64,000 nucleotides of DNA from a virus (taxonomy: Duplodnaviria; Heunggongvirae; Uroviricota; Caudoviricetes), in the IMG/VR virus record IMGVR_UViG_3300025853_000035, positions 1-64,000 of that record. One strand, given 5' to 3'. The translations under genes and the position numbers were made by a program. The notes beneath the pieces were generated by a model. That model ran no database searches. It was not told where the DNA came from and saw only the letters and a program-made list of their open reading frames with translations. Numbering within the stretch: position 1 is the first letter of the stretch; every line of letters starts with the position of its first letter. Positions 1 through 63,736 of the stretch are shown here, one piece after another.

Positions 1-128
1 GAAGGCATGGGCGGTTGACCAGCTTTTTTCGCCCGGTAAGGTTTGCGGCCATTCCACGCAAAGCGTGCCATCCACGGCGGAGCGGTAAAAGCGCGCTTTC
101 GGGCAGAATGCTAATATGAAAGCGCGGA

Positions 129-365
129 TCATGCCATTTCCTCCAACCAAGGGATCAAGGCGGGCTTATTCATACAAGAGCGCAGGCCGCCGGGGTAGCG
201 AACGGCGACGCTTTCGCCGATCGGGATGGCGCGCAGGGTTTCGATTGCGCCCGCCTTGTCGCCTTCATAGATCAGGGTGTCGTTTTCCCCGATGACGATC
301 GACGTTGCGCCGTTGCGGTCGCTGGGACCGACTTCGCGGACGGAAGAGCGATAAACCTTGAACAT
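129..365 (-). CDS. hypothetical small protein (79 aa, starts MFKVYRSS)
   Basis: ORF 129..434 trimmed to the internal ATG directly preceded by the GGAGACAGAC SD motif. Has its own upstream promoter copy. Confidence 0.45.
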   Translation of the reverse strand: MFKVYRSSVREVGPSDRNGATSIVIGENDTLIYEGDKAGAIETLRAIPIGESVAVRYPGGLRSCMNKPALIPWLEEMA

Positions 366-3026: not shown

Positions 3027-3829
3027 GGCCCGTGGGAGGCTCAGGGAGCGCCACAGGGCGTCAGGAGGCCCCAGAAGGCACCGGGAGGACCTGTTGAGGC
3101 TCCACGGCGCTTAGAACGGCTCTGAGGGGCCTCCAGACGGGCACTGTAAAGCCAGAATGGCGGTCGAAGCACCAGAAAACGGGTCAAATCCGCCATTTTA
3201 CCCTCTGAGGGGTCAATTTCCCGGCCTTATGTCGCCAAATGTCCGTTTTTCGACATTACACCGACAGTTTCACTTGACATTGGTGGTGGAGCCGACCCGG
3301 CCGGGGTCCGATTTGACGAACCATCTTTTACAACATTAGGCTGTAAAATCACAAAATCTTTTTTCGACTTTGCCCCTTCAAACCCGCAGAAAACTGCCAT
3401 TTTCCCTTCTAATATTCCAATCTACAGATTGTGTGACTTTAGTCGGTGCAACATTACCGGCGCGGCGCGGCCTCAAGGGGACGATCCGGGACGCCGGACA
3501 TGGGTCGTCGATCGCTTCCCGAGGCTTCTCAGGGCGATTTGTGGAGGCGGCTGGAGGATGTGATGGAGGTGGGAGGGGGGCGTGCTGCCCGGAAATGGTG
3601 GAGATATGGGTGGAAGGAGTGATGGAAAATCGAAATCCAACACCCCGGCCTATGTCCTGACGGGGAGGGTCCCAGAGGTCTGGAGAAAAGGGGTCCCCGG
3701 CCCTTGCTCTGAGGGGGAGGGTCCCCTAGTCTGTGTCGTGGGGACCGTCGGCCGGATGTCGTTCGTCGGGGTCCCCCTGATCGGCGGGACGGTGCGGATG
3801 CAGGCTGGCGGACGAGAGCATGGCGGGCC

Positions 3830-4106: not shown

Positions 4107-5870
4107 TCAGCGGTGGCCAGCGCCGGTCATCTTCTTCGTCCCGCGACGGGCCTTCTGCTTGGCCCATTTCAGATATTGCGAGGTGGCGTCCACTTGGTCG
4201 TCATTCTTGCCGTTAGGGAAGGCCACGAGTTCCTTCTCATAATCGGCAAGCCACTTGGCGCTTTCCGGCAGGTAGACCTGCCCGGCCTCGAACATCGGCG
4301 TCACTTCGTCGAAACGGAACGACTTGCTCGCGGTGCCCACCTCGATTGGGATCAGCGCGGTAGGAGCACCACCATTCGCCTTCAACTGGCAATAGGCCAG
4401 ACCGTTGCCCTTGGCTTCGACCAGCAGGGCGTCGGCGTCGTAGCGCTTCACCACGCGGGCGATCTCGGACGACAGTTCGACCAGTTCCATTCGCTTGCGG
4501 ATCACGTCCACCAGATAATGGTTCCGTTTGAGGTCTTCGATCCAGACCGTGATGACGGTGTAGTCGCTTCGCTCCTTGTCCGTGTTCGCGGCGTCAACCG
4601 AAACCACGGTGCGACGAATCTGGTTCTGCGTTCCCTTCTCAGGATCGGCCTTGGCCGGCGGATGGGTGTAGCGCTGGAACCATTCAGCATCGACCGCGCC
4701 GCCGCTCACGTCCATAGGCGTGCCCTGATACAGCGAGTTCCACGACGCGGAAGTCATATCGCTTCTGAGATTTTCCAATGCGTCGAGGTCGTAAACCTCT
4801 GGCCACAATGCTTCGCCGGACGCCCGGCCTAGAATATCGTTGTCTTCTTCGGCGATGGCGGGGAGATTAATAATTTCAAAGCGGTATTTTTTGCGTTTTC
4901 CCTCTTTTTCCTCAAGAGAATCAATGAGTTGGTCCGCAAAATCTTTTTCTATTTTTTCTTGCTCTTCTCTTTTTTCCCGTTCTTCGCGATCTGAGATGCG
5001 TCCGCAGAGGTCGTCAGAGTGCCAGCGGGTCATAATAATGCCCAGCGGGGAACCCGGCAGAAGGCGCGTGGAGAAGTCGTCTGAATACCATTTGAACGCG
5101 GTGTCGCGGATCGTCGGGCTTTCAGCGTCCTTGCGGCTCTTGTAGGGATCGTCCACCATACCGTAGTGACCACGGAAGCCGGAGATACCCTGTCCGACAC
5201 CCTTGCCGACATATTTGCCCTTACCATTGGTCAGTGCCCAATAGTCCATGGCGCGCATGTCGTGCTTGATCTTGATGTCGGGGAAGACGCGCTGGTAATC
5301 CTCAGACGCGATGATCTGGCGAACGGTTGCACCGATTTCCTTGGCGACGAAGTCCTGACTGTGCCCGGCTTGCAGGAACTTCTGCTTCGATCCGAACTTG
5401 CCGAACCACCACGCAGGGAAGTGGTGCGACGAGTGGGTCGATTTACAGTGCCCCGGAGGCATGGACAGCATGAAGCGCATGGTCTCCTTGGAAGCGGAGG
5501 ACATGAGCAAGTCTCCGATGAGTTTCTGGTGCGGCGACATGGTGTAACCATTCTCGCGCTGCATGAACTCATAGAAATCGTGGTAGCTCTCGCGCGCCAG
5601 TTCGATCCAGACTTCGTCCAGTTCGGCCTCGGCGAAGTCGATCGTCTTATCGAGCGTGGTTAGCTGCGTGTCGAGATCGTCGGACTGACTAAGCGTCCGA
5701 AGTGCTTGGTAGTCGTGGGGCGAGAGGGTTGTCTGCTTGCGGACTGCTTCCTCCACTCGCGTCTGCAAGGACTTGAGTGACTTGACCGATGAGTGCAAGC
5801 GTGTTTTGCGGTCCCGCTTGCTTTCCGCTAGTTGCATCTGCTTGTGCTTTCTCGAACATTTTGAGGGCAT
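4107..5870 (-). CDS. terL: terminase large subunit
   Basis: 587-aa ORF. ATPase region plus the MTRWHSDDL motif and a C-terminal nuclease region (VSVDAANTDKERSDYTV, GKNDDQVDA). The start is uncertain: the listed start overlaps terS by about 180 nt, and later Met codons exist. Confidence 0.8.
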   Translation of the reverse strand: MPSKCSRKHKQMQLAESKRDRKTRLHSSVKSLKSLQTRVEEAVRKQTTLSPHDYQALRTLSQSDDLDTQLTTLDKTIDFAEAELDEVWIELARESYHDFYEFMQRENGYTMSPHQKLIGDLLMSSASKETMRFMLSMPPGHCKSTHSSHHFPAWWFGKFGSKQKFLQAGHSQDFVAKEIGATVRQIIASEDYQRVFPDIKIKHDMRAMDYWALTNGKGKYVGKGVGQGISGFRGHYGMVDDPYKSRKDAESPTIRDTAFKWYSDDFSTRLLPGSPLGIIMTRWHSDDLCGRISDREEREKREEQEKIEKDFADQLIDSLEEKEGKRKKYRFEIINLPAIAEEDNDILGRASGEALWPEVYDLDALENLRSDMTSASWNSLYQGTPMDVSGGAVDAEWFQRYTHPPAKADPEKGTQNQIRRTVVSVDAANTDKERSDYTVITVWIEDLKRNHYLVDVIRKRMELVELSSEIARVVKRYDADALLVEAKGNGLAYCQLKANGGAPTALIPIEVGTASKSFRFDEVTPMFEAGQVYLPESAKWLADYEKELVAFPNGKNDDQVDATSQYLKWAKQKARRGTKKMTGAGHR

Positions 5871-8093: not shown

Positions 8094-8254
8094 TGATAGG
8101 GAACTCCGTGGCTTGAGGGCCTATGGTCAGCCAGAAGATACCCAATGTCAAGGGAAAATGGCGGTCAGGGAGGTTTGTAAAAATTACTGAAAAATCTAAT
8201 AAAACTGGTTGGACCGCTAACCCACGGTAATCCGCCGTCGTTTACGGAAGGTTC

Positions 8255-8298
8255 CCTACTATATTATATATTTATATATTTTTAATAATAAAGTATAT
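8255..8298. repeat. AT-rich tract (tatattatatatttatatatttttaataataaagtatata) in a 63%-GC genome
   Basis: Seen directly. Candidate DNA-unwinding element. Confidence 0.85.
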
Positions 8299-8499
8299 AA
8301 CCAAGAACCTTCGCATAGGGCCTCACCGGTCAGAACGGGGCGATCAGGGCAGACCTAATTCGTGGCTGGGCTGAATAAAAACGAAACGTAAAAGTTGGTG
8401 GCGGCTCAAAAAAGCCCGGTAAAATCGCTGTAACCCGCAGAAAACAGCCATTTCTACACCATCACTCGTCCCTTATCACCTCCTCTAATTACCTCTCCA

Positions 8500-8640
8500 T
8501 CACGCCCAAATCGCAAAAACCCACCCCGCCATCACGCCCATCACGCCATCTCGATCCCCTCCATCACGCCTCCTCGGCATCACGATCATCACGCCATCAC
8601 GATCATCACGCCATCATGGCCGTCACGTCAAAATGACACC
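8500..8640. repeat. iteron-like direct repeats of CATCACGCC and ATCACGATCATCACGCC
   Basis: ccatcacgcccatcacgccatc...catcacgcctcctcggcatcacgatcatcacgccatcacgatcatcacgcc. Confidence 0.85.
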
Positions 8641-8788
8641 CGAATATCCCGACAAAATGTCCAATAAAAAATAAAAAGACACCCGGCGGCCCCTGAAACC
8701 CTTGGAAATCCGTCGCTTTCACCTTCCACCACTTTTTCTAACATTTTGGATCGTTGACAATTATCGCGTGATGCACCATCATGTGAGA

Positions 8789-10138
8789 ATGACCACACCA
8801 ACCAGCCATACTGACGCTGCCGACTCGCAGACGCCCGCCGCCGTCCCTGATGTGCCCTTCACCAGCCGCTCCGGTGCGCTACCCAACGAGCGCGTGATGA
8901 TCACCACGGGCATCTTCTATGTGATGGAGCACGACGGCCCCATCCGCTTCTGGATTCACGCGCGCACCTACAACAAGCGCCCGGTCGCTGGTGGTCCCAA
9001 GCGCGTTCGCGGCTTCAACGAGTATGACAAGGCCGTGCGCTTCATGCGCCGGGCGACCAAGGACGCGATCGCCGCTGATCCTGCCGTCCGCAAATGGTTG
9101 GCCAGCTATGAAGGTGTTGAGGCCAACAATGCCGCCGGCATCCAGAACTTAGACCCTGTGCCCCCTCGCAAGCGTGGCCGGCCGGTGGGCAGCAAGAATG
9201 CACCCAAGCCGCAGAAGCCGGGACCGAAGCCCAAACCGCCCGAACCGAAGAAGCGCGGACCCAAGCCGAAACCCCAGCCGCCCGCGCCGATCGAGCATCC
9301 GCCCGTGTCCTTGACCGCGCTGGTTGATCGCTTCCGCATCGAGCCGGAGCTTTCCAACCCGATCGCACAGGTCTGGCGCTGCGTCTCGAACACGGCTCCT
9401 GCTCGTGGCCGCCGGGCGCGCACCGGGAACAACCAGACCGGCGACCTTCCGCACCTGATGGGGAGCTACCTCATCACGCACTATGACCGGGGCGTCTATT
9501 CGGCCGCCTCGGATGAAGACGGCGTGGCCTATATCTATCCGACGTGGATCGACGCGGAACGGGAGGCCAAGTTCTTTTACGAGCAAGCGCCGGAACCCAA
9601 GCTGCCGATGGAAGGGATCACCCACTACCGGGTCGATCATGTTGAGGTTCACCTGACGCCCGCCATCCACGACGGCCGGCCCTATTCGCTGTTCGACACG
9701 CGGGTCTGTGCATATGTGCGCGACGGGCGCGGATACAAGTCCTACACCCGACTCGACAGTGCAAAAGAAGCGGCAAACGAATATGCCGACCTCGCGCCCT
9801 TCTCGGTGCGGCTGGCCCGCGCGCTGGTGGAGACGCCGGAAGAGAAGGCGAACCGCGAGCGCCGCGAGGAACTGGAAGCGATCGAAGCCGCCCGCGCCCA
9901 AGAGGAACGCGACCGCCTCTATGAAGAGGAGATGGCTGACCTCGCGCGCCGCCGGGCGAACGCGCCAGAGCGCCGGTTCCTGACACCGGAGGAGATCGCG
10001 ATCGAGAAGGCCAAGCGCGTGCAGATCATCAACCCGACGCCGGAGCAGAAGCTCGCCGCCCGCCGGGCCAAATATGTGCGCCGGTCCTATTCGGATCGGG
10101 AAGCGCGCGCCCACCGGCAGGCGGCGTCTGATTCGTAG
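8789..10138 (+). CDS. AT-hook-containing DNA-binding protein (candidate origin-binding protein)
   Basis: Pro/Lys-rich segment with AT-hook cores (PRKRGRPVGSKN, KKRGPKPKP) and a charged C-terminal coiled region. A TTGACA promoter lies inside the listed ORF, so the start was moved to the ATG at 8789. Confidence 0.55.
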   Translation: MTTPTSHTDAADSQTPAAVPDVPFTSRSGALPNERVMITTGIFYVMEHDGPIRFWIHARTYNKRPVAGGPKRVRGFNEYDKAVRFMRRATKDAIAADPAVRKWLASYEGVEANNAAGIQNLDPVPPRKRGRPVGSKNAPKPQKPGPKPKPPEPKKRGPKPKPQPPAPIEHPPVSLTALVDRFRIEPELSNPIAQVWRCVSNTAPARGRRARTGNNQTGDLPHLMGSYLITHYDRGVYSAASDEDGVAYIYPTWIDAEREAKFFYEQAPEPKLPMEGITHYRVDHVEVHLTPAIHDGRPYSLFDTRVCAYVRDGRGYKSYTRLDSAKEAANEYADLAPFSVRLARALVETPEEKANRERREELEAIEAARAQEERDRLYEEEMADLARRRANAPERRFLTPEEIAIEKAKRVQIINPTPEQKLAARRAKYVRRSYSDREARAHRQAASDS

Positions 10139-36713: not shown

Positions 36714-37934
36714 ATGAGCATCCGCAAGTCCATCACGCATCAACTCAAGCACAACAGCGCCCTCCACGGCGCGATCCTGTCCGGTGGCGCGGCGCTCATC
36801 ACCAAGCTCTACGAGGCATATCAGGAGCGGCAGGTGCTTCGGGTCCGGTTCAATTCGGACATGCCTGACTATGCCGCCATCACGCGCTACATCACCGATC
36901 ATCTGCTCGACACCGAGCGGAGCCGGTCCTTCACCTATTCGGCGGACAGCCGCTGGCGGGACGGCGAGGAAACCACCGAGAACCAGACGCTGGCGATCGG
37001 CTACGGCAACCACGCCGGGCGCTTCCGTGGCACCCTGATCGAAGTGGAGCGATCCCTCGACGAGAGCAACCGGGCGGGGACGTTCAAGGAAACGCTGGTC
37101 GTGACCTTCATCACTCGCGACAAGGCCGTCGTCCGGGATTTCATCGACGAACTGGTCAAGATCACCAGCGCCGGGTCGGCCGTGTTCAAGCACGTCCCAA
37201 TCTACACCAACACTTCGTCCTATTGGGATCGCACCGGCAAGCTGCCCCTGCGTTCGATCGAGAGCGTGTTCACGGCGGACGACGCCGGGCAGCATGTGGT
37301 GGACGCCGTCCGCGCCTTCGAGGCCAAGAAGGATGAGCATCACCGCCTCGGCCTGCCCCATCACATCGGCATCCTCCTGCATGGCGAACCGGGCTGTGGT
37401 AAGTCGAGCCTGATCCATGCCGTCGCCTCCGAACTCCAGCGGTCGATCTATTATCTCAATCTGGGGTCGGTCACCGACGACTCCTGCCTCACGAGCCTGC
37501 TGGCCGGGACGCGTGATTGGTCGAAGGCGCTACTGGTGCTGGAGGACATCGACGCAACCGGCGTGATGGTCAACAGGGCCGAGGGAGGCGCTGAGAAGGG
37601 CAAGAAGAAGAAAGACAAGGCGAAGGAGCAGGACGCGGCGGTAACCGCCTCCAGCAGCCCTGTGAGCCTGTCTGTGCTGTTGAACTCGCTGGACGGCATC
37701 CTGTGCCCGGACGGTCTCGTCGTCATCGCCACCACCAACCACCTCGACCGGCTGGACCCGGCCCTGCGCCGCCCCGGCCGCTTCGATCACCTGATCGAGC
37801 TTGGCAAGCTGGGCTATGACGATTTCGTCCGCATGGCCCGCCTGTTCGGCAAGGACCCTAACCAGTTCCTCGTCGCAAATGACGTGGAGATGACCGGGGC
37901 ACAGATGCGCGCGATCCTGCTGGATGTCGCATAG
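36714..37934 (+). CDS. BCS1-like AAA+ ATPase
   Basis: Walker A GILLHGEPGCGKSS, Walker B ALLVLEDIDA, and SLLNSLDGI...VVIATTNHLDRLDPALRRPGRFD (sensor/arginine finger typical of BCS1-type AAA). Confidence 0.75.
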   Translation: MSIRKSITHQLKHNSALHGAILSGGAALITKLYEAYQERQVLRVRFNSDMPDYAAITRYITDHLLDTERSRSFTYSADSRWRDGEETTENQTLAIGYGNHAGRFRGTLIEVERSLDESNRAGTFKETLVVTFITRDKAVVRDFIDELVKITSAGSAVFKHVPIYTNTSSYWDRTGKLPLRSIESVFTADDAGQHVVDAVRAFEAKKDEHHRLGLPHHIGILLHGEPGCGKSSLIHAVASELQRSIYYLNLGSVTDDSCLTSLLAGTRDWSKALLVLEDIDATGVMVNRAEGGAEKGKKKKDKAKEQDAAVTASSSPVSLSVLLNSLDGILCPDGLVVIATTNHLDRLDPALRRPGRFDHLIELGKLGYDDFVRMARLFGKDPNQFLVANDVEMTGAQMRAILLDVA

Positions 37935-39572: not shown

Positions 39573-39696
39573 CAAACTCCTGTTACACGACGAGACGCGC
39601 CGAGACAAGCTGTCTCAAGAAAACCCCGGAAATCCGCCATTTTTGGTCCTTTCTTAGTAACAACGTGGGACATCCTGTTTCATCCAGAAACGACAA

Positions 39697-39762: not shown

Positions 39763-39792
39763 AACTCGATCTGCAAACAGGAAGATTTGTCC

Positions 39793-41148
39793 ATGAAGAA
39801 ACAGCTTACGGCGGCCTTCGTCAAGGGCCTCAAGCCCGGTCCGAAGAAACAGGTGATCACTGATTCTGTGGCGGCCAACCTCCGCCTGATCGTCCACCCG
39901 ACCGGGCGAAAGATTTGGGCATGGCAAGGCAAGGTGAACGGTGAGCCGAAGACGGTGACGCTGGGTCAGTGGTTGGAGACCGGAGGCATGGACCTGTCCG
40001 CCGCCCGCGAGCGAGCGACCGAGATCAACACCGCCAAGGTCGAGGGAAGAGCGGTGAGCTTCCTAACGCCCAGCGAGGAGTCATCCGAGCCGGCGATCGA
40101 CCCGCGCGCCTCCCTCACCTGCGACTGGATGTTCGATCAATATATGGCGGCCGAGGGCGAGACGAGGAAGACGGCCAAGGAGAAGCGGACCACCTACAAC
40201 CGGGAGATCAAACCGACGCTGGGTGAGCGGCAGATCGACACCATCACCTACGACGATCTGGCGGCGATCGTGCAGAAGAAGTTTGCGGAAGGGAAGGGGC
40301 CGGCGTCGAACCGGCTCAAGGCGCTCATCGCCCGCTGGTGGAAGTGGGGCGTCTCGCGCGGCCGGGCCGTGACCGGTCTGACCGTCAACCCGGCGATCGA
40401 TCTGGTGAGCCTCGCCGACGAGAACAAGCGTCGTCGCTACCTCACGAATTACGAGATCGGGGTGTTCTTCAAAGGAACCTATTTGGCTCGTGACACCTTC
40501 GCTGAGATGATGACCGTCATCCTCTACACCGGCCTGCGACGGAGCGAGGCGGCCGGTCTGACATGGGACGAGGTCCGCTTCCACGACAACACGATTCTGA
40601 TCAGCGGTGAGCGGATCAAGAACGGGTTGGACCTGCTGCTGTGGATGCCGGACACGGTGGTCGCGATCCTGCGCCAACGCAAGCGCCTCACCGGCAATTA
40701 CAAATACGTCTGGCCGGCCCCGTTCTCGTGGAGGCAGGGCGAGACGGTCGATGAAGACGAGGACACGTCGAAGGAGCTAATCAGCTTCACGAAGCCCATG
40801 AACGCGCTCAACGAGACCTGCCAGAAGCTGGCGGCGAAGGAGCGGAAGACCATGGAGCGGTTCACCGTCCACGATCTGCGTCGCACGCTGGCGACGGGTA
40901 TGCGGGGATTGAGGGATGCCGAGGACAAGCCTCTCATCCTGTCGGACATCGTCGAGCGGGTCATCAACCACATCATCGGCGGCGTCCGGGGCAACTACGA
41001 TCACCACGACTATTTCGCGGAGAAGAAGGCGGCGCTCCGCATTTGGGCGGAGCACCTTGATCCGATCAGGCTGACCGCTCACGCAGCCATTGAGAAAACT
41101 CACTCCGCAGCCAGCGGGTCGCCTGCACGTTCACTGGCTGAGGCATGA
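39793..41148 (+). CDS. int: tyrosine integrase (P4-type)
   Basis: N-terminal arm-binding domain (LTAAFVKGLKPGPKK...ANLRLIVHPTGRKIWAWQGKVNG, DUF4102-like) and a catalytic region with HDLRRTLATGM and a C-terminal Tyr. Adjacent to a tRNA fragment and arm repeats. Confidence 0.9.
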   Translation: MKKQLTAAFVKGLKPGPKKQVITDSVAANLRLIVHPTGRKIWAWQGKVNGEPKTVTLGQWLETGGMDLSAARERATEINTAKVEGRAVSFLTPSEESSEPAIDPRASLTCDWMFDQYMAAEGETRKTAKEKRTTYNREIKPTLGERQIDTITYDDLAAIVQKKFAEGKGPASNRLKALIARWWKWGVSRGRAVTGLTVNPAIDLVSLADENKRRRYLTNYEIGVFFKGTYLARDTFAEMMTVILYTGLRRSEAAGLTWDEVRFHDNTILISGERIKNGLDLLLWMPDTVVAILRQRKRLTGNYKYVWPAPFSWRQGETVDEDEDTSKELISFTKPMNALNETCQKLAAKERKTMERFTVHDLRRTLATGMRGLRDAEDKPLILSDIVERVINHIIGGVRGNYDHHDYFAEKKAALRIWAEHLDPIRLTAHAAIEKTHSAASGSPARSLAEA

Positions 41149-41920: not shown

Positions 41921-42001
41921 AACGGCAAAATGGCGGTTGACGAACCGGAAGAATCGTCCTAATTCGACCCCATCAACAACGAATCGAAGGAGACAGACCC
42001 T

Positions 42002-42417: not shown

Positions 42418-42753
42418 ATGATGGGGGACTATGCTCACGAGCCGCCGGACGATGAGACTGATCCGGTCTATCTCCTGCTCAAGGCAGGGTATAGGCCGGA
42501 GCAGTTCGAGGCCGCCTGCAAGCGCCTCCGTCCGATGGCACTCGACGATTATCTGCGTGAGCCGTTCTCGGACCTCGAAAAGATGATCTTGCGGTTGGCG
42601 GTGGAGAACACATCGTGGATCACCACCTACCGCACCCACGCCCCAACCCGTGACTCGCCCATGCTGATCCGTGAAGCATTGACCGCGTTGCGAACCCTCG
42701 CCGCCAAGCTCGAAGACTTCGGCATCGAAGTCAACTACATCCCCAACGATTGA
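42418..42753 (+). CDS. hypothetical protein (starts MMGDYAHEPP)
   Basis: Internal ATG of ORF 42133..42753. Confidence 0.4.
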   Translation: MMGDYAHEPPDDETDPVYLLLKAGYRPEQFEAACKRLRPMALDDYLREPFSDLEKMILRLAVENTSWITTYRTHAPTRDSPMLIREALTALRTLAAKLEDFGIEVNYIPND

Positions 42754-42764
42754 AAAGGAGCCAC

Positions 42765-43865
42765 ATGTTCGACATCTGTGTATTCGCTGGCCGTATGCGT
42801 CCGCCGACGGCCGCTCATCTGGCCAACATCCGCGCCGGCCTCGCCGCTTCCCAATATGTCTTCGTCATCATCGGCTCGACCGGTGAAGCCCCGCACTTCA
42901 AGAACCCCTTCACGTTCGACGAAGTCCAGACCATGATCCGTGGCTCGCTGTCGGCGGCCGAGAATGATCGCGTCTTCGTCCACGGCGTCCGCGACCGCGA
43001 CAATGACCTTGCGTGGGTCCGCGACGTGCAGAAGATCGTCCACGAACAGGCGACCGCGCTGTCGATCCCCGGCGAGCCGCGTATCGCTCTGGTAGGCTGC
43101 AACAAGGACGGCTCGTCCTATTACCTCAAGCTCTTCCGCCAGTGGGGAAGCATCGGTGTCGAGCCGATCCTGAACGACGGCGAATCGATGTCGGCGACCG
43201 CCATGCGTATGGCGCTCTACGAAGCCGAGGACCCCGGCCGCGTCCTCAAGACGTGGAAGGACCTGTTCGGCGCTTCCTATCTCCCGCACGGCACCTTCTG
43301 GTTCCTGCGCCAGTGGGTGAACACCGAGCACTTCCAGCAGATGCGGGCCGAGGCGCTGTTCATGCGGGACGAACTCAAGAAGTTCCAGCCGAACCCCTAC
43401 ACCGGCCAGCCGCAGCAGCACAATTGCGCCGACTTCTATCTACAGCACGGCGGCGCTGTCCTGCTGGTCAAGCGCGATCGGATGCCCGGCGAAGGGCTGT
43501 GGGCGGTGCCCGGCGGGCACAAGCACGCCTACCAGACGTTCCGCGACGCAGCGCTCGCTGAGCTTGGTCAGGAAACCAGCATCTTCGACCTGAACGAAGC
43601 CATCACGCCCGACGTGATCAACAGCTACATCCGGGGCGACAAGCTGCTCGACAATCCGTGGCGGTCGAACCGCGAAGTGACCGTCTCGGTAGCTTACGGC
43701 GCGCTGCTGCCCGGCAGCTTCACCCGGCCGCTGATCGAAGGCGCTGACGACGCCCGCGAAGCCCGCTGGTGGAACATCGACGAGATCACCCGTGACATGA
43801 TGTTCGAAGACCACTTCAACATCATCGAGGATTTCTCGAACCGCTTCCGCGATCTGACGATCTAA
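42765..43865 (+). CDS. nadM: bifunctional NMN adenylyltransferase / Nudix ADP-ribose pyrophosphatase (NadM-Nudix)
   Basis: N-terminus ICVFAGRMRPPTAAHLANI matches the archaeal-type NMNAT motif GRFQPxH/TxGH. C-terminal Nudix box GGHKHAYQTFRDAALAELGQETS. SD AAGGAG before the ATG. Confidence 0.7.
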   Translation: MFDICVFAGRMRPPTAAHLANIRAGLAASQYVFVIIGSTGEAPHFKNPFTFDEVQTMIRGSLSAAENDRVFVHGVRDRDNDLAWVRDVQKIVHEQATALSIPGEPRIALVGCNKDGSSYYLKLFRQWGSIGVEPILNDGESMSATAMRMALYEAEDPGRVLKTWKDLFGASYLPHGTFWFLRQWVNTEHFQQMRAEALFMRDELKKFQPNPYTGQPQQHNCADFYLQHGGAVLLVKRDRMPGEGLWAVPGGHKHAYQTFRDAALAELGQETSIFDLNEAITPDVINSYIRGDKLLDNPWRSNREVTVSVAYGALLPGSFTRPLIEGADDAREARWWNIDEITRDMMFEDHFNIIEDFSNRFRDLTI

Positions 43866-43877
43866 TCAGGAGACCCC

Positions 43878-45344
43878 ATGAGCTATATCACGACCATCGG
43901 GGAACTGCTGAACCAGCCGATCCTCAACAGCGACACCTACAAGAACAGCCACTGGACGTTCGAGCACCCGCAGTTCACTTCGAGCTACGGCTACATCGAA
44001 GCCCGTAAGGGTGGCGAGTTCAGCGAGGTCATGTTCTTCGGCCTGCAATACCTGCTGCGCTATTACCTGACCCAGCGCGTCACCGACTCGGTGATCGCCC
44101 ACGCCCGCCGCTTCCTCCCGCTGCACGGCGTGCCGTTCAACGAAGAAATGTGGACGACCATCCGCGACAAGCACGATGGCCGGTGGCCGGTGCGGATCAA
44201 GGCGCTTCCAGAGGGCGTCCTCGTCCCGCAGGGCTGTGTCCTTGTCACGGTGGAATCGCTCGACGAGGAATGCGCCGGTGTCGCCGCGTTCGTCGAAACC
44301 CTGCTGCTTCGCGGCGTCTGGCTCCCCACCACGATCGCCACCCGGTCGATGCGCTGGTGGCGTCTGGTCGATCGCTACCTCACCCAGAGCGGCACGCCGG
44401 AGACGGCGGAGTTCAAGGTGGTGGACTTCTCGGCGCGCGGCGTCCGGTCGTCCGAGGACGCAGGCATCTCCGGCATGGCCCATCTCCTGAACTTTCAGGT
44501 GACCGACAATCTGCTTGGCATCCTGTTCGGCCAGAACGCCTACACGACCGAAACCATGCTGGGATATTCGATCCCGGCGACCGAGCACTCGGTCACCACG
44601 TCGTGGGGCAAGGAAAACGAGCAGGCGTTCTTCGAGCACATTCTCGAAGTCCATGGCCAGACCGTGAACCCGCTGGGCGGCCGGTCGCCGGTGTCGGTGG
44701 TGATCGACACCTACGATCAGGACAACGCCGTCCGCATGTGGCTGACGCCGGCCGAGAAGGGCGGTTGCGGCCTCCGCGAGAAGCTGGAAGCGTCGAACAT
44801 GTGCGTCGTGCTGCGGCCGGACTCGGGTGATCCGATCATCAACGTCGTCCACCTGCTCGACCTGATCGGAAGCCTGACGGGCTGGACGGTCAACGAGAAG
44901 GGCTTCCGCGTCCTCCCGGATTTCGTTCGCGTCATTCAGGGCGACGGCATCCACGAAGAATCGCTGCGCCGCATCCTCCAGCGTGTGGTCTACCACACTT
45001 GGTCGATCGACAACCTGACCTTCGGTTCGGGCGGTGGTCTGATGATGCACGACGTGGAGCGCGACACCCACCGCTTCGCCATGAAGACCTCGGAAGTGGT
45101 CATCGGCGGTATCACCAGCGCCGTCCGCAAGGAGGTCAAGACCGATCCGTCCAAGGCATCCAAGGCCGGGCGCTTCGCAGTGGTGATGGAGAACGACGTG
45201 CTGATCACCATCCCGGAAGACGAACTCAACGGTCGTCTCAACTATCTGCGGACGGTCTACGAGGACGGCGAACTGGTCGCCCCTGAGACGTTCGATCAGG
45301 TCCGGGAGCGCGCTCGCCAGTGGCGCGTCATCGGGCACGGCTAA
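43878..45344 (+). CDS. nadV: nicotinamide phosphoribosyltransferase (NadV/NAMPT)
   Basis: N-terminus LNQPILNSDTYKNSHW matches the NAMPT DT/SYKxxH signature. 488 aa. Confidence 0.8.
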   Translation: MSYITTIGELLNQPILNSDTYKNSHWTFEHPQFTSSYGYIEARKGGEFSEVMFFGLQYLLRYYLTQRVTDSVIAHARRFLPLHGVPFNEEMWTTIRDKHDGRWPVRIKALPEGVLVPQGCVLVTVESLDEECAGVAAFVETLLLRGVWLPTTIATRSMRWWRLVDRYLTQSGTPETAEFKVVDFSARGVRSSEDAGISGMAHLLNFQVTDNLLGILFGQNAYTTETMLGYSIPATEHSVTTSWGKENEQAFFEHILEVHGQTVNPLGGRSPVSVVIDTYDQDNAVRMWLTPAEKGGCGLREKLEASNMCVVLRPDSGDPIINVVHLLDLIGSLTGWTVNEKGFRVLPDFVRVIQGDGIHEESLRRILQRVVYHTWSIDNLTFGSGGGLMMHDVERDTHRFAMKTSEVVIGGITSAVRKEVKTDPSKASKAGRFAVVMENDVLITIPEDELNGRLNYLRTVYEDGELVAPETFDQVRERARQWRVIGHG

Positions 45345-53754: not shown

Positions 53755-56700
53755 TTAAAGGCCCCGGACCTTCATCGCCTTCACGTCCTCTTCGGACATG
53801 ATCTCGATGTCGAGTCCCTTGCTTTCCTTGAGGTTGGCGCGGACCTGCGAGAGCGGCGGGAAGATGAACACGCGGCTCTGGTTGGTCTGACCGTCAAGCT
53901 TCATCTTGACCTCCCGAGCGCCGAACCAGTCGCCCACCACCGTCGAGATGTCGTCGAAGCTGGTCTTGGCCTTGTCCGACGAGAACAAGAAGCGGACATA
54001 ATCCGACACCGCTGCTCGCAGGTCCTTGGCGTAGACCATCGTCTCGCGATCGTCGTTCAGTTCGATCGACGGGAAACGGTTCTCGTCGCTCGTCTCGTAA
54101 AGGCCGGACTTGACCAGTTCGAGCATGAACTTCTGCACGCCCGACAGCGTCTCGATCTGCTGCTTCTGGAGGTGGTCGGTCTTGGGCGGCGTGAACAGGC
54201 TGGCGAAGGTGCCCTTGACCGGCTTCCAGTGGAGCAGGTCGTGCAGCATGGCTTGCAGGCCACCCTTCTTGTCCATCTGCTCGCGCATCAGGCCGAAGAA
54301 CTCCAGATCGCCTTGGCGGGCATCCGAGCAGCGCAGCACGAAGAAGCGACGTTCGTCCTTGAGCGAGGCAGGGACCACCCAATCGTTGTTCGAGATCAGC
54401 GCGAGGCGCGTGTAGTTCTCGGACTGGATCGGGTCATAGCCCTTCTTTTCGATCAGCACCGACTTGTTGGTGATCATGTCCTTGAGGACACCTTCCGCCT
54501 GCGGGTCAGCGGCCCAGAAGGCTTCTTCGCAGACCATGAGCAGGGCGGTTTCAAGGTGGCCGTTGAACTGACCGACGATCTGCTTCCGCTGGCTCACGGT
54601 GATGCCGTGGAAGCCAAGCAGCTTGTTGATGAAGTCGAACAGGGTGGACTTACCCGTGCCCTTACCGCCGGTGATGACCAGCGTCGAACCCGGCTTGGCC
54701 TCCGGCTTCTGGAACAGCATCGCCAGCCACGTCATCAGCCACTCGAAATACTCGTCGTTCGACTCGCAGATGTTCTCGTAGATGTGACCACGCAGCATCG
54801 ACCAGTCACCGGCGACCGGTTCGTCCTTGTTGTCGAGGATGTTCTCCCACGTCGTCGGGACCGGCTCATACGGCCAGCCACGGAACAGGTTGTAGATGTC
54901 CTTGGCGACGCGGCGGCCGGGAGCGAACACCACCTGACGGTAGGTGCGGCGCTTGTCCCATTCCAGCCACAGGTCGAACCCGGCCAGCTTCTTCGACTGC
55001 TTGCCCTCGGCGATCCAGATCACGCGGTTCTTCTCGAACAGCTTCACGTCTCCCTGCGTTTCGAAGATCACGTCATCATCGGCGGAGCGCGGCTCCACCA
55101 GAATCTTGACGCCGCCGGACGTGCGGATCACTGCATAGCGCCGGTTGAACGCACGCAGCATGGTTTCCTCGGAATCGCCGAAGTCAAGATCGTCGTCCTC
55201 GAACTCCGGCTCCTCGGCCTCGTCGGTCGTAGGGGCGTCGGCGCGCGGCGTCGGCTTCTTCGGCTTGACCGGCTCTTCCTCCTCTTCCTCGTCCTCCTCC
55301 AGTTCGAACAGATAGTCCTTGTTGGTGAGGTCGGCCGGCGTGATCAATTCCTGCTCGATCAGTTCCTTGAGGTAGTCGAGGCGATCGCGGCCGGAGCAGG
55401 CGTTGTGGGTGCAGTTGAAGGTGAAGCCGCCTTCATAGCCGTCTTCCAGATTGTCGGAAGCGTTGACCACGAAGGTGCCGCCGCCGCCGAAGCTGGAGTG
55501 CTCGGCCTCGAACGGGCATTCGACGTGGACGCCGGCCTTGTTACCCCGGCCTTCGCGGATGAAGTCGCCACCGATCACATCCTCAAGCATCGCCTGCACA
55601 TCGAAGCGCTTGGCGTGCTTGATCGACCAGCCCTTGAGGTTGAAACCGCCGCTGGTGATGTAGCGGTTTGCGTCGTCCTCGTCGCCGTCATCCGCTCCAC
55701 CGGCCGCCGTGAAGGCGTTGCTGGCCACGGCGCTACGCTTGTTGTCGCGGCCCCGGCGCATCTTGACCCGGTCGAACTTGTCGAGGTCCAGCGGCTCGCC
55801 GCAGACCACCCACGAACCGAACGCCTTGTCCTTCGAGGCGTGGCGGGGCAGGTAGAAGAGGCGGGCAGGGTCTACGCACTTCTCATCGAAGAAGAGATCG
55901 AGCGCGGTGCAGAAGCCAGCATAGCGTTCCTTCCACTCGTCGATCGCATCCTTCTGCGAGCCGCCGCGCTTGGCGAACACGAAGGCTTCCTTGAGCGGAA
56001 ATACCGCACGGAACTTCGGCATCGGCTTATGCTGGACGAGGATGACGACGCCGTCTTCCGAGTGGTGGGCGTCATCCAGAATCGTCAGTTCCTCGACGAT
56101 CGCCGGCAGCACACCCTTCTTCTTGATCAGGTAGTCGCGGACCGCTTCCTCTTCGACCTCGGATGCCTCGGCCCACTTCATGAAGTGGTCGCGCTTGATG
56201 ACCGACGTGTTCTTGAGGTGGCTGTGGGTGGTGTAGATCACCGCCTCCAAACCATGCTGCTGGATCGTCCGCATCACGTCGTCGAGCGGCGCACCGGAGT
56301 CGAGATCGACGCCGAGGATGTGGTTGGCGATCATGGCGACGGCCTTGCGGGCACCGTTCGCGGACTGTCCTTGCAGGAAGCAGGGACCGTCCTTCTGGCC
56401 TTCCTTGTGATCCTGCAACATCGTCTCGAACTGGCCGAAGGTGCTGGACACCTCCTTCCACTTGCCCTGCGCTTCATCGCGGCGGCGGCCGGTCATGAGC
56501 GTGATGTTTGTCATGGTGCCCGGCGTCTGGATGTCGAGGTCCTGCGGGAGATACCAGTTCAGGCCGTCGAGATTGACCTTGCCCTTGCTATCGAGGAAGA
56601 CCGAGAGCGGGCACAGGTGCAGGCCGCTCTTCTGCCCGGAGACAGGATCGCCGTCGAGCATGTAGATCATACCGCCGGACACGTCGAACGAAGGCTGAGG

Positions 56701-56913
56701 CTCGACCACGTCGGGATTACCCGCGACGAAGATGCCGACAGCATCGCCGGTGTCAGTGACCAGATCGATCCACGGGTCGTTGGCATTTGACGCCCACGCG
56801 CCGACTTGCAGGAGATCATCGCTCGTGAACTCGTTCCCATCAGCATCGGAAACGGTGATCGCGCCGGTCGTGCGATCGAACAGATCGCAGATGAATTTGG
56901 TGTATAGAGCCAT
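53755..56913 (-). CDS. DNA primase/helicase (P4/D5-family NTPase C-terminal domain)
   Basis: 1052 aa. Walker A VITGGKGTGKSTL and Walker B FFVLRCSD in the C-terminal half, consistent with a phage/plasmid primase P4-type C-terminal domain. Central poly-acidic linker (EEDEEEEEEP). Confidence 0.65.
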   Translation of the reverse strand: MALYTKFICDLFDRTTGAITVSDADGNEFTSDDLLQVGAWASNANDPWIDLVTDTGDAVGIFVAGNPDVVEPQPSFDVSGGMIYMLDGDPVSGQKSGLHLCPLSVFLDSKGKVNLDGLNWYLPQDLDIQTPGTMTNITLMTGRRRDEAQGKWKEVSSTFGQFETMLQDHKEGQKDGPCFLQGQSANGARKAVAMIANHILGVDLDSGAPLDDVMRTIQQHGLEAVIYTTHSHLKNTSVIKRDHFMKWAEASEVEEEAVRDYLIKKKGVLPAIVEELTILDDAHHSEDGVVILVQHKPMPKFRAVFPLKEAFVFAKRGGSQKDAIDEWKERYAGFCTALDLFFDEKCVDPARLFYLPRHASKDKAFGSWVVCGEPLDLDKFDRVKMRRGRDNKRSAVASNAFTAAGGADDGDEDDANRYITSGGFNLKGWSIKHAKRFDVQAMLEDVIGGDFIREGRGNKAGVHVECPFEAEHSSFGGGGTFVVNASDNLEDGYEGGFTFNCTHNACSGRDRLDYLKELIEQELITPADLTNKDYLFELEEDEEEEEEPVKPKKPTPRADAPTTDEAEEPEFEDDDLDFGDSEETMLRAFNRRYAVIRTSGGVKILVEPRSADDDVIFETQGDVKLFEKNRVIWIAEGKQSKKLAGFDLWLEWDKRRTYRQVVFAPGRRVAKDIYNLFRGWPYEPVPTTWENILDNKDEPVAGDWSMLRGHIYENICESNDEYFEWLMTWLAMLFQKPEAKPGSTLVITGGKGTGKSTLFDFINKLLGFHGITVSQRKQIVGQFNGHLETALLMVCEEAFWAADPQAEGVLKDMITNKSVLIEKKGYDPIQSENYTRLALISNNDWVVPASLKDERRFFVLRCSDARQGDLEFFGLMREQMDKKGGLQAMLHDLLHWKPVKGTFASLFTPPKTDHLQKQQIETLSGVQKFMLELVKSGLYETSDENRFPSIELNDDRETMVYAKDLRAAVSDYVRFLFSSDKAKTSFDDISTVVGDWFGAREVKMKLDGQTNQSRVFIFPPLSQVRANLKESKGLDIEIMSEEDVKAMKVRGL

Positions 56914-57699: not shown

Positions 57700-58183
57700 T
57701 GCCGGCTTCTAGCCTCGGACGAGGGAGTCGAACCCTCATTTGCCCAGCTTGCCCTACCTTGGGCCTTCTCTTCCTTCATCCGTCGCGAACGGTAGGTTCG
57801 GACAGCAGCGAAAAGTGTCTTGCTCCCAGATAGGATGATTCTTCCTATCTGTCAAACACAGTTCAGAAGGAGGCCCAACACAGTCGCGCGGGGGAGTGCG
57901 ACTAGCGGTCAGGGGTGGGGTCGTGCTGGACCCCCATCTGAACTGTGTGGCCCGTTCTGTTGCTCGGTGGGCCAGCCCGCACCTTAGGAGTTGATCCCCA
58001 AGGAATTCACCGGACACAGTTTAGGCCGAAGCCCTCACATTCGTCCGGCTGAGATCACGCCGCGAGGCGCATCTCGACAACTTCGTTGTCGTTGACAGTT
58101 ACGTCGGTGATCCGCATGACGGGCGGTGTCTAAACGGGTCGCGTCCTTCTCTCAGCCTTGCCGCTCGATCCTAATTCACCCCC
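57700..58183 (-). ncRNA. ssrA: tmRNA-like (ssrA-like) gene: tRNA-like 5' end, tag reading frame, downstream T-arm-like element (3' end unresolved)
   Basis: Minus strand from 58183 reads GGGGGUGAAUUAGGAUCGAGCGG, which fits the tmRNA 5' consensus GGGGnUGAuUcuGGAUuCGAcGGG. About 95 nt downstream is an in-frame tag (V)NDNEVVEMRLAA followed by a TGA stop (plus-strand coordinates about 58046-58085), ending in the degron-like LAA. A GAGGGTTCGACTCCCTC T-arm motif sits at 57721-57737. No clean 3' acceptor plus CCA was found. Confidence 0.45.
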
Positions 58184-58997
58184 ATCAACTGCACTGACAA
58201 CCAACACCTCCATCCGCTAAGACTTTGGCGCTAGGGTCGCTAAACCCTAACCGGCGTTCCGACTGTCAGCATTACGCTTGGGCGCGCTGTCAGTGCAGAT
58301 GGTGGAGGTGGCGGGCTCTGCCCCCGCGTCACGGCTCAACCTCGATCGTCCGAATAACGACCATATTCTTTGTGGCCCAGCGCCCCGCGCTGAGAAGCGC
58401 GGTCGATAACGGCACGATGGGCCAACCTCGTTGCGATCAGATCGGTGAGGGATTCGAACCCTCGGCTGGACGGTGCGCCATAATTCTGACTACGGAGCCG
58501 TTGCCTCCGAATTCCATCCAGTCTTGCATCGATCACCCTTAAACCACTCGGGCAACCGACCTGATCAAACCTCCCCTGCACACTCGGAATAGCGGGCAGA
58601 CATTGCGGCGCTGAAAGCGCGGGAGGAAATTCTTGCCATCACTGGCAATGTGAAACCTCAAAGCTCAGCAGGCTCACTACTTCCTGCCTATAGCCGCGTC
58701 AGTGTAACGCCACACCTCTCCACGAGGAGCAAAAGGTCTCGCATTGCGAGTGATACCCGGCGGAGTAACAACAAGGAGACAAATCCGCTCCGCCGGGCAT
58801 CCGATCTGGAACTTCCCCGCATGGGCTGCTCCGTCTCGATGAACACATCTCTAAGCGATTCGTTACAGAACGTCAAGCGAAAATGTCGCTGCATTCTTTT
58901 GGCGCATCACTTTTTAGAGAGAGGTGACAAAAATCTGATTTCCTGCCAAAGAGCGGGGCGCGGCCGAGGAGGTCGAGCAATCAAAGTTAGGTGCTAA

Positions 58998-62757: not shown

Positions 62758-62833
62758 TGGCACGGGTGGTGGGACTCGAACCCACGTTGCACGGTTTTGG
62801 AGACCGGCCGAATAGCCGCTATCTTACACCCAT
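62758..62833 (-). tRNA. tRNA-Trp (CCA)
   Basis: Manual cloverleaf: acceptor ATGGGTG/CACCCGT, T-arm GTGGGTTCGAGTCCCAC, anticodon loop CTCCAAA, encoded CCA. Confidence 0.6.
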
Positions 62834-62842
62834 GTGAAACGC

Positions 62843-62926
62843 TGGAGCCGCCCACAGGGATCGAACCTGCGTCCTTTCGGAACCTCCGGGTTGCAACCGG
62901 GTGCCTTACCTCTCGGCCAAGGCGGC
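62843..62926 (-). tRNA. class II (Ser-like body) tRNA with apparent GCA anticodon
   Basis: Acceptor GCCGCCT/GGGCGGC, Ser-like D-arm GGCCGAGAGGTAAGGC, 14-nt variable arm, T-arm GCAGGTTCGATCCCTGT, CCA. The anticodon region CCGGTTGCAACCGG is palindromic; the most plausible loop TTGCAAC gives GCA. Confidence 0.5.
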
Positions 62927-62933
62927 TCATATC

Positions 62934-63020
62934 TGGAGGAGAGTGAGGGGATCGAACCCTCCCAGCCTTTCGGCTACCTTCGCTTAGCAAGCGAGTGCGT
63001 TACCACTCCGCCAACTCTCC
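62934..63020 (-). tRNA. tRNA-Ser (GCT)
   Basis: Acceptor GGAGAGT/ACTCTCC, D-arm GGCGGAGTGGTAACGC, loop TTGCTAA, long variable arm, T-arm GGGTTCGATCCCC, CCA. Confidence 0.65.
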
Positions 63021-63027
63021 ATTAAAC

Positions 63028-63100
63028 TGGATGCCCGGCCACGGATCGAACGTGGGTTTCATGCTTCAAAGGCACGGGTCTTACCATTAGACGAACGGGC
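63028..63100 (-). tRNA. tRNA-Gln (TTG)
   Basis: Anticodon stem CGTGC/GCATG, loop CTTTGAA, T-arm CCACGTTCGATCCGTGG, CCA. Confidence 0.55.
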
Positions 63101-63102
63101 AT

Positions 63103-63180
63103 TGGTTCTCCGCCGAGGACTCGAACCTCTATCTTTCCGCATTCAGAGTGCGGCGGCCGGACCTGCCAGCTAAGCGGAGA
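63103..63180 (-). tRNA. tRNA-Gln (CTG)
   Basis: Acceptor TCTCCGC/GCGGAGA, anticodon stem CCGCA/TGCGG, loop CTCTGAA, T-loop GGTTCGAGTCC, CCA. Confidence 0.55.
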
Positions 63181-63198
63181 ACAGGATCAGGACTTAGG

Positions 63199-63272
63199 GG
63201 TGACCTGTGGGTTTCGAACCCACCATCTCCGGCACCACAAGCCGGCGCATCAACCTACTCTGCCTAGGCCAC
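63199..63272 (-). tRNA. tRNA-His (GTG), no encoded G-1
   Basis: Acceptor GTGGCCT/AGGTCAC, anticodon stem CCGGC/GCCGG, loop TTGTGGT, T-arm GTGGGTTCGAAACCCAC. Position -1 is U and no CCA is encoded. Confidence 0.6.
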
Positions 63273-63369
63273 ACCTAAATCCTGAACTGCATCCCATCGT
63301 CCTCATGTGACCAGATATGACCGATAGGGCGGTCATATTGCCCATATATGGACGATAGAACGGTCAAAC

Positions 63370-63446
63370 TGGAGCCGACGGTGGGATTTCAACCCACGAT
63401 CTGCCGTTTACGAGACGGCTGCTTTGAGGCTCTAAGCTACGTCGGC
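63370..63446 (-). tRNA. tRNA-Thr (CGT)
   Basis: Acceptor GCCGACG/CGTCGGC, anticodon stem GCCGT/ACGGC, loop CTCGTAA, T-arm GTGGGTTGAAATCCCAC, CCA. Confidence 0.65.
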
Positions 63447-63453
63447 ATAACTC

Positions 63454-63540
63454 TGGTGCGGTTCCCCGGACTTGAACCGGGACGGCCTTTCGGCCACTGA
63501 GGTTTGAATCCAGCGCGTCTACCAATTCCGCCAGAACCGC
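63454..63540 (-). tRNA. tRNA-Leu (CAA)
   Basis: Leu-type D-arm GGCGGAATTGGTAGACGC, loop TTCAAAC, long variable arm, T-arm CCCGGTTCAAGTCCGGG, CCA. Confidence 0.65.
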
Positions 63541-63548
63541 ATTGATCT

Positions 63549-63634
63549 TGGTGCCCTAGGCAGGACTTGAACCTGCACGACCTTTCGGCCCACGGCCTCT
63601 CATGCCGCTATGTCTACCGTTCCATCACAAGGGC
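63549..63634 (-). tRNA. tRNA-Leu (GAG)
   Basis: Leu-type D-arm GATGGAACGGTAGAC, anticodon stem GCGGC/GCCGT, loop ATGAGAG, long variable arm, T-arm GCAGGTTCAAGTCCTGC, CCA. Confidence 0.6.
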
Positions 63635-63646
63635 GTGATTGTAATC

Positions 63647-63730: not shown

Positions 63731-63736
63731 GTTAAC

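Follow-up and report, generated by a model that had tools for sequence, protein, structure and literature searches.

The non-coding spacer at positions 8094-8788 of a 64,000-nt stretch of tailed-phage DNA (positions 1 to 64,000 of IMG/VR record IMGVR_UViG_3300025853_000035, Caudoviricetes; hereafter the window) contains a real, conserved cis-acting module, which is linked to an orphan protein encoded by the adjoining open reading frame (ORF) 8789-10138 and is undescribed in the literature searched. The module combines a long A/T tract with an array of short CATCAC repeats and is kept in a group of large phages that infect sphingomonad bacteria. The genome papers of Sphingobium phage Lacusarx, Erythrobacter phage vB_EliS-L02 and phage phiCbK do not mention the locus. 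The reading favoured here, tentatively and with less than even confidence, is that the spacer is a conserved nucleoprotein-assembly locus, a candidate replication origin that would at the same time act as operator for the operon next to it.

Anatomy and conservation of the spacer

Relatives of the window phage were found through the large terminase TerL (4107-5870, minus strand), which is 66-76% identical to the proteins of Erythrobacter phage XM05, Lacusarx and vB_EliS-L02 (L02); blastn of the window DNA against known phages and tblastn with ORF 8789-10138 gave no match. The group comprising these three phages consists of phiCbK-like siphophages with genomes of 130-150 kb and terminal repeats of ~10 kb (PMC5648845; PMC3556154). 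Twelve phages were compared, including Lacusarx, XM05, L02 and metagenomic relatives. With the exceptions given below, the same order is kept in all of them: promoter, A/T tract, ~200 nt, direct CATCAC array, inverted copies and ORF homologue. CATCAC is the top or near-top 6-mer of the spacer in all 12, where 4-9 direct copies always lie to the right of the best A/T tract. Downstream of this array, 11 of the 12 phages have 2-4 inverted copies, which lie close to the ORF start or within it, and in 11 the ORF homologue is directly the first gene after the spacer; in L02 other genes intervene between the two.

XM05 and Lacusarx have the same genes flanking the spacer, with an A/T tract of ~45 nt, CATCACG repeats ~150-200 nt further on and then the positional homologue of the ORF, which BLASTP matches over the central domain (8e-9 for XM05 and 3e-13 for Lacusarx). 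The succession of packaging block, 630-945 bp spacer and ORF is found in these two phages, in six diverse members (20-45% identity) and in two near relatives (82-90%), and the layout persists though the ORF family diverges to ~20% identity. In the more distant RXM the tract and the array are absent and the ORF match is marginal (E 0.02). The number and order of the repeats vary among phages that are 82-99% related, with the CATCAC core invariant in the 12 phages; such turnover of copy number among close relatives is a likeness to iteron arrays. The anatomy is real and non-random, is kept as a module in every relative examined and has the features expected of a functional protein-binding and DNA-melting locus.

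The A/T tract of the window (8257-8300) is 44 nt long and includes just two bases other than A and T (C8259 and G8293). An earlier reading of the window, made from the sequence alone (the sequence-only reading), had described this almost pure 44-bp tract correctly in length and composition and placed it 2 nt too far to the left, at 8255-8298, in what it took for a 63%-GC genome; the measured G+C content of the window is ~60%. The tract is the sole stretch of the 64 kb with at least 27 A/T among 30 bases and the weakest 50-bp duplex of the window (dG -46.0 against a mean of -76.9 +/- 4.7, z=6.6), the next one having -59.5. It lies within a 70-nt block (Table 1) that corresponds to the invariant columns 157-226 of alignment A1, in which the spacer of the window and two close relatives is 89% identical overall, and it is surrounded by an 8-bp inverted repeat, GAAGGTTC (8247-8254) and GAACCTTC (8305-8312). 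Lacusarx has only one such tract in 128 kb. The A/T richness and relative position of the tract are kept in all 12 phages while its sequence drifts, which argues for selection on a physical property. The first full repeat lies ~195 bp from the tract, a spacing that is kept among relatives. An apparent inversion of the tract relative to XM05 and Lacusarx was dropped, because the tract is low-complexity and quasi-palindromic; alignments in the two orientations score alike (29-35 and 27-34).

Exact copies of CATCACG in the array lie at 8498, 8530, 8539, 8562, 8578, 8587, 8595 and 8604, accompanied by CATCACT at 8460 and by degenerate units at 8547 (CATCTCG), 8612 (CATCATG) and 8621 (GTCACG), which bears out the earlier count of at least 8 iterons. 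The repeat unit measures 8-9 bp (17 bp as a double unit) around the invariant 6-bp core CATCAC. The consensus of the array extends to CCATCACGCC(CA), and the 11-bp consensus site CATCACGCCCA is found in most of the 12 related phages. CATCACGCC occurs in six exact copies within 8498-8612 and in 13 copies in the whole window against 1.04 expected, a number reached in none of 100 shuffles. Like the repeats that mark an iteron origin, the array is a cluster of direct repeats of protein-binding type in non-coding DNA, the binding being putative. Two of the three inverted copies fall within the first 135 nt of ORF 8789-10138, and the A-rich stretch listed in Table 1 is kept in part in close relatives.

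Other repeat-like sequences were also noted. CTTATCACCTCCTCTAA (8470-8490) resembles the anti-Shine-Dalgarno 3' end of 16S rRNA (GATCACCTCCTTA), a likeness that is probably due to chance because it is not conserved in the close relatives L003 or L004. Viral contigs scanned for three CATCACG copies in close succession gave non-specific results, namely coding tandem repeats and giant-virus contigs, and an apparent second array in a 164-kb relative proved to be a coding AITAH repeat.

All promoters named here are consensus-based predictions. The leftward promoter of the packaging operon ends 30 nt ahead of the start codon at 8093. Among relatives, a promoter of the CTTGAC(A/C)-N14-16-GCT(A/G)AC type is kept 30-40 nt upstream of the packaging-side gene; the CTTGAC -35 element stands at the equivalent position in nearly all of them, the strict pattern being present in six of the 12 and the rest matched by eye. 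The candidate rightward promoter gave 10/12 matches in the promoter scan, and GTGATG-CAC-CATCAT (8768-8782), in which the repeat core forms an imperfect palindrome, overlaps both its spacer and its -10 region. Use of this promoter would give an mRNA that has no leader at ATG 8789 or is translated from a start further downstream. Given the positions of the two promoters, the A/T tract and the array lie between divergent predicted promoters, and the locus is outside the transcripts predicted from them. The earlier placement of the locus between two major transcription blocks was correct, these blocks being divergent around 8094-8788. At the right-hand edge of the array, another leftward promoter (TTGACG-N18-GATGAT) was considered as a possible source of an R-loop and rejected, since it is kept neither in XM05 nor in Lacusarx.

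The element CCGCCATTTT, previously listed as a motif recurring in intergenic regions, is present in the window in four exact copies, at 3190(+), 8155(-), 39634(+) and 41927(-), against 0.14 expected. The copy formerly assigned to 8438 is a variant, CAGCCATTTC, at 8446-8455, and that assigned to 3165 is CCGCCATTCT on the minus strand; none was found at 3395. A CCGACATTCTGG/CCGCCATTCTGG form of the element abuts TTGACA/TTTACA in XM05, L132 and L135 and at window position 3162. The GTAACCCGCAGAAAACAGCCATTTCT motif is a variant of the GAAAAC..AAATCCGCCATTTT element present at 3165-3200 and 39610-39645, and is possibly a promoter element; a related motif is found in the Lacusarx element and is repeated in L137. 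CCGCCATT(T/C)T is itself part of a larger recurring element, GAAAAC-N5-AAATCCGCCATTTT (3153-3200, 8155-8164, 8446-8455, 39634-39643 and 41927-41936), which often stands directly upstream of a TTGACA/TTTACA -35 box, likewise in XM05, L132 and L135, and which probably represents a phage promoter class or activator site. Two copies face each other at 3153-3200, in a ~1-kb non-coding stretch downstream of TerL and near the expected terminal-repeat boundary.

The linked protein family

The protein encoded by ORF 8789-10138, for which gene callers on relatives place the start six codons earlier (ATG 8771), consists of an N-terminal beta/alpha domain (~31-108), a basic and disordered Pro/Lys linker and a central alpha/beta domain (~175-345), according to an AlphaFold2 (AF2) model. 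The model was built on a 46-sequence alignment and has a mean predicted local distance difference test (pLDDT) score of 79, as compared to 39.6 with a 5-sequence input. The central domain carries a near-invariant NPxAQVWxC..GRR..H motif (alignment A5), with N190, Q194 and W196 among its near-invariant residues, and the C-terminal 100 residues (350-448), for which AF2 predicts long helices, form an extension that in the same alignment is confined to the longer members nearest the window protein. A HMMER profile search of 1.84 billion representatives assigned 48 representative clusters at 50% identity to this family.

One canonical AT hook, RKRGRPVGSK (residues 126-135), is located in a disordered segment with pLDDT below 50, PRKRGRPVGSK having the G-R-P core flanked by Arg/Lys. 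The sequence-only reading had counted two canonical AT-hook cores, and of these KKRGPKPKP falls away because it lacks the GRP core. The RGRP hook is present in the linker of ~14 of 46 family members and missing in Lacusarx gp112.

Neither the window protein nor the 46 aligned members had a match in Pfam, PHROG, NCBIfam or PDB sequences, a fold search with the full-length model found no solved relative, and comparison of the family profile with that of the superfamily 3 (SF3) primase-helicase of the window revealed no relation. A structural protein, for example a tape measure, had been named as a finding that would overturn the origin proposal; this alternative is unsupported, as no structural family or fold was matched and the minor-tail-protein row in the Foldseek viral list is insignificant (E 0.13). 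The ORF is, moreover, the first gene in the block of small non-structural genes. Its product is plausibly DNA-associated, since it is basic, bears a hook and has a possible oligomerisation helix, and from the strict synteny it may reasonably be taken as the protein that binds both CATCAC and A/T DNA.

Candidate functions of the locus

In the favoured reading, a phage-encoded sequence-specific protein would bind the 8-9-bp CATCAC(GCC) units side by side and oligomerise. The best candidate for the binder is the invariably linked family of ORF 8789-10138, acting through its conserved central domain; an alternative would be the SF3 (DUF5906) primase-helicase encoded at 53755-56913, as in phage P4. 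The linker of some members has an AT hook, which could anchor the complex in the minor groove of the sole long A/T tract. Torsional stress would open this tract, being the weakest duplex, and the phage primase-helicase would load there. The same protein might also repress its own operon by way of the inverted CATCAC copies that cover the rightward promoter and the ORF's 5' end, possibly looping to the array. The protein encoded at 53755-56913 is probably the primase-helicase used in replication and is a second candidate for recognising the origin; in Lacusarx its homologue (gp191) has been annotated only as hypothetical. The replisome is of T7/P4 style, with the SF3 primase-helicase in the window phage and PolA in Lacusarx, and an annotated initiator is absent.

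A number of observations weigh against an origin with the linked protein as its initiator. The repeats are not origin-specific, because Lacusarx and XM05 have a second such array ahead of phoH, where the terminal repeat joins the unique region. The second arrays have no long A/T tract, although XM05 has a 16-nt A/T stretch inside; the window contains a single CATCAC array, and the region corresponding to the phoH junction lies outside it. In the spacer itself (8094-8788) there is no DnaA box (TTATCCACA, allowing 2 mismatches) and neither an IHF consensus nor a CtrA box, but such boxes are not obligatory for phage origins. The A/T tract does not abut the array, being separated from it by the gap of ~195 bp. 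CCGCCATTTT is best regarded, from its placement, as a promoter-proximal element and no origin motif, because its copies sit directly upstream of TTGACA/TTTACA -35 boxes. About one in three family members has the hook, and gp112 is without it despite a kept A/T tract. Neither by sequence profile nor by fold does the protein show similarity to initiators of the Rep, DnaA or lambda-O types, and no recognised Rep family (Rep_3/winged-helix, RepA_N, lambda O or DnaA-like) appears as a cognate initiator, so that the earlier assignment of the adjacent ORF as initiator is left without homology support. Finally, the repeat core does not co-vary with the ORF family across 20-99% identity, which is equally compatible with a different, more conserved binder.

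Cumulative GC skew, suggested earlier as a check, is likewise of no help to the origin. It peaks at the locus both in the window and in Lacusarx; in most blocks of the two genomes the coding strands have C>G and A>T, and divergent genes with C>G coding strands alone produce a maximum, so that the extreme is explained by gene orientation. By the bacterial convention, the origin is located at the minimum of the cumulative skew. A 1.5-kb switch of gene orientation at 57.5-59 kb was considered as an alternative origin and rejected, as it is occupied by the transfer-messenger RNA (tmRNA) gene. The classic iteron origin proposed by the sequence-only reading is supported in part, in that the anatomy agrees with the general build of such origins.

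Purely transcriptional control is the main rival, possible if on the unlikely side. The CATCAC arrays would then serve as operators or as enhancer-like platforms. A phage regulator acting on them, possibly the product of the adjacent ORF, would loop direct to inverted copies and time the operons that follow, the early 'miscellaneous' block in the window and, at the second array, the phoH-portal-structural block; the A/T tract would be a bend, an insulator or the target of an AT-binding silencer. This would agree with Lacusarx and XM05, where the two arrays precede two operons in sense orientation and inverted copies are found at or inside the first gene, as well as with the overlap of the inverted-core palindrome with the candidate rightward promoter and the promoter association of the adjoining CCGCCATT element. 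AT-hook proteins are typically architectural transcription factors, and Lacusarx carries its own sigma factor, which implies that programmed promoter switching exists in this group. However, control of transcription alone does not require the unique, near-pure 44-nt A/T tract, which is kept as a property in 12 of 12 phages and lies 100-150 bp from either promoter, and for simple repression the distance of 130-300 bp between the array and the rightward promoter downstream of it is long. The explanation also overlaps the favoured reading, since a dual role is compatible with both.

It is improbable that the arrays are a DNA-end or transaction signal, whether T5-like injection-stop, packaging-related or polar Chi-like arrays (5'-GGCGTGATG-3' on the opposite strand); the Chi-like version would halt host AddAB/RecBCD entering from the genome ends and promote terminal-repeat recombination. 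Short-repeat arrays adjoin the terminal repeats of T7 and T5, the arrays of Lacusarx are divergent around the packaging genes and the 10.5-kb terminal repeat, with the second at the inner boundary of the repeat, and RecBCD/Chi polarity would put GGCGTGATG on the strand read by a nuclease coming from the nearer end. CATCAC(G) is also over-represented and strand-biased genome-wide, with 59 copies in the whole window against 14 expected and, outside the array, 40 copies on the plus strand as compared to 11 on the minus strand. It is the second most over-represented 7-mer of coding sequences (CDS), with 28 copies on their sense strand against 7.7 +/- 2.8 by codon shuffling. Yet gene orientation fits the strand bias about as well as position relative to the locus, and the CDS copies are mostly in one frame, xxC-ATC-ACG, and candidates for the excess are codon-pair bias, scattered binding sites and a polar signal. 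The window array lies more than 4 kb from the start of the terminal repeat and not, as a pac or cos site would, at a terminus or cut site; by the time a nuclease reached the array, the packaging genes would have been destroyed. A Chi sequence is not known for these hosts, and neither the A/T tract nor the linked ORF is explained by a signal of this kind. Still less probable are repeats devoid of their own function (slippage-generated simple sequence) or acting at the RNA level as CAUCAC leader repeats. Copy number does vary among close relatives, a 44-aa ORF is called over the array in one relative, and the second array of XM05 has a sigma-70-like promoter upstream of the repeats and may therefore be transcribed; but core, orientation, position and inverted copies are kept in 12 of 12 phages with unalignable flanks, no Rfam family matches, and the candidate rightward promoter of the window sits downstream of the array.

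A stronger form of the favoured origin-and-operator reading is doubtful. It would make the locus the origin of an unrecognised phage replication system with the fold-orphan family as initiator and the second array as a cis partner, similar to P4 crr or P1 incA, tied to the genome ends. If true, this initiator would have two globular domains of a novel kind, connected through a basic linker that bears an AT hook in some members, and the second array would couple replication control to the genome ends. For the phiCbK/Lacusarx group, large siphophages with terminal repeats and alphaproteobacterial hosts, no origin, early operator or initiator has been defined so far. A sharply delimited module composed of a meltable tract, a CATCACGCCCA site and an orphan family offers a testable handle on the start of replication or on a transcription switch. 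The orphan protein, if it is the binder, would represent a new DNA-binding fold; if it is not, the locus would be an ordinary regulatory spacer in a little-studied phage group.

Genomic context and known systems

Table 1. Positions of the spacer elements, gene blocks and second arrays.
Feature	Position	Strand	Remarks
Terminal-repeat region	left of ~4100		in window orientation
Packaging operon	up to 8093	-	
Divergent spacer	8094-8788		between packaging operon (-) and long plus-strand block
Predicted leftward packaging-operon promoter	8124..8151	-	sigma-70/alpha-proteobacterial type, TTGACA-N14-GCTGACCA
CCGCCATTTT element	8155..8164	-	directly upstream of the leftward promoter -35 box
Invariant 70-nt block holding the A/T tract	8250..8319	strandless	identical in the window and two close relatives
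GTAACCCGCAGAAAACAGCCATTTCT motif	8430..8455	+	just upstream of the array; kept in the window, L003 and L004
Direct-repeat array	8460..8627	+	8 exact CATCACG, 1 CATCACT, 3 degenerate units
A-rich stretch	8628..8685	+	small repeat CAAAATGACACCC / CAAAATGTCC / AAAAAGACACCCG (repeat families D4, D7)
Candidate rightward promoter	8739..8782	+	AACATTTTGG upstream element, TTGACA (8754-8759), 17-nt spacer, CATCAT (8777-8782)
Inverted repeat-core copies GTGATG, three	8768, 8894, 8921 (span 8768..8926)	-	downstream of the direct array
Orphan protein, 449 aa	8789..10138	+	no database or fold match
Block of mostly small genes	8789 to ~49500	+	includes integrase-like gene and NAD-salvage genes
Block with RtcB and 1052-aa SF3 (DUF5906) primase-helicase, then tmRNA and tRNAs		-	
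Primase-helicase, 1052 aa	53755-56913	-	SF3 helicase DUF5906 domain and PHROG primase matches
Second array, Lacusarx	record 1-350		six (GGGAC)CCATCACGCC units and three inverted copies; GGGACCCATCACGCC spaced 24-41 bp
Second array, XM05	~76.8-77.1 kb	-	direct copies (4-6 across both phages), then 3 inverted

In Lacusarx (PMC5648845) and phiCbK (PMC3556154) the terminal repeat begins at or just past the 3' end of TerL. The terminal-repeat region of the window contains two full CtrA-type boxes (TTAA-N7-TTAA), at 2624 and 2689, which agrees with the enrichment of CtrA sites reported for the terminal repeats of this phage group (PMC9437464). TAACCTT, AACCTTA and GGTTAACG are among the most over-represented words of the window under a maximal-order Markov model.

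The 'miscellaneous' block includes genes encoding a BCS1-like AAA+ ATPase (36714-37934, plus strand) and an NAD-salvage pair (42750-45344, plus strand) made up of a cytidyltransferase-family protein with a NUDIX match and a nicotinamide phosphoribosyltransferase. A full-length tyrosine integrase-like gene with Arm-DNA-bind_3, Phage_int_M and Phage_integrase domains (39787-41148, plus strand) occurs despite the description of the phage group as virulent; it is preceded at ~150 nt by the promoter-type CCGCCATTTT element at 39634, and a 'site-specific tyrosine recombinase XerS' is annotated in the syntenic block of Lacusarx. On the minus strand, a permuted (two-piece) alphaproteobacterial tmRNA is found at 57946-58400 (Rfam RF01849, 68.8 bits; RF04321, 79.6 bits), and Lacusarx has a tmRNA annotated at the syntenic place. 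Eleven tRNA genes (Trp, Cys, Ser x2, Gln x2, His, Thr and Leu x3) are clustered at 62758-63978, also on the minus strand.

Some features of the locus recall other DNA-binding systems. Arrays bound by ribbon-helix-helix proteins include the WATCACW heptads of omega of pSM19035 and the ParR/parC centromere-operators. In common with these, the locus has 7-9-bp units, head-to-tail and head-to-head, upstream of operons, on which cooperative filament-like binding would be expected. The ATCAC core is shared with the omega sites, which may be chance; no ribbon-helix-helix protein was identified, no partition genes accompany the locus, and the phage family is described as virulent. The window protein resembles HMGA-type AT-hook proteins in its single R-G-R-P core with basic flanks, its disordered Pro/Lys-rich linker and the vicinity of its gene to the sole long A/T tract, but differs in that about two thirds of the family, including gp112, lack the hook and the conserved parts are two globular domains.

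At the primary origin of T7, promoters are followed by an AT-rich region and initiation is primed by transcription. T7 and the phages studied here have in common a linear genome ending in direct terminal repeats, an AT-rich tract close to promoters and, in the relatives, a replisome of PolA-type polymerase and primase-helicase. However, the T7 origin has no iteron array, and the two recognisable promoters of the locus point away from the A/T tract, which for this reason is not obviously transcribed. Phage P4, the ori/crr system of which with the alpha primase-helicase was reportedly treated by Ziegelin and Lanka in 1995, carries octamer-sized repeats, direct and inverted, at two separate loci. 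The two arrays of Lacusarx and XM05 and the large SF3-type primase-helicase, which could putatively recognise the origin itself, are similar to this arrangement. The repeat sequences are unrelated, the primase-helicase gene is located 45 kb from the locus, and P4 has neither a 44-nt pure A/T tract nor a linked orphan protein.

The remaining comparison is with iteron theta origins, such as lambda ori/O, those of P1, F, RK2 and pPS10, and the RepA_N type of pSK41 and PLE. Their repeats usually measure 17-22 bp, as opposed to the 8-9 bp with a 6-bp core found here, although RepA_N plasmid iterons can be as short as 8-9 bp (PMC7145576). The present locus also differs in the A/T tract lying ~195 bp off, on the side of the array away from the gene, in the absence of DnaA/IHF boxes and of a Rep-type linked protein, and in the second array of related genomes. 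What it shares with these origins is the non-coding direct repeats with an AT-rich, putatively meltable tract nearby and a linked gene with inverted repeat copies at its candidate promoter, the latter being the classical layout of autoregulation.

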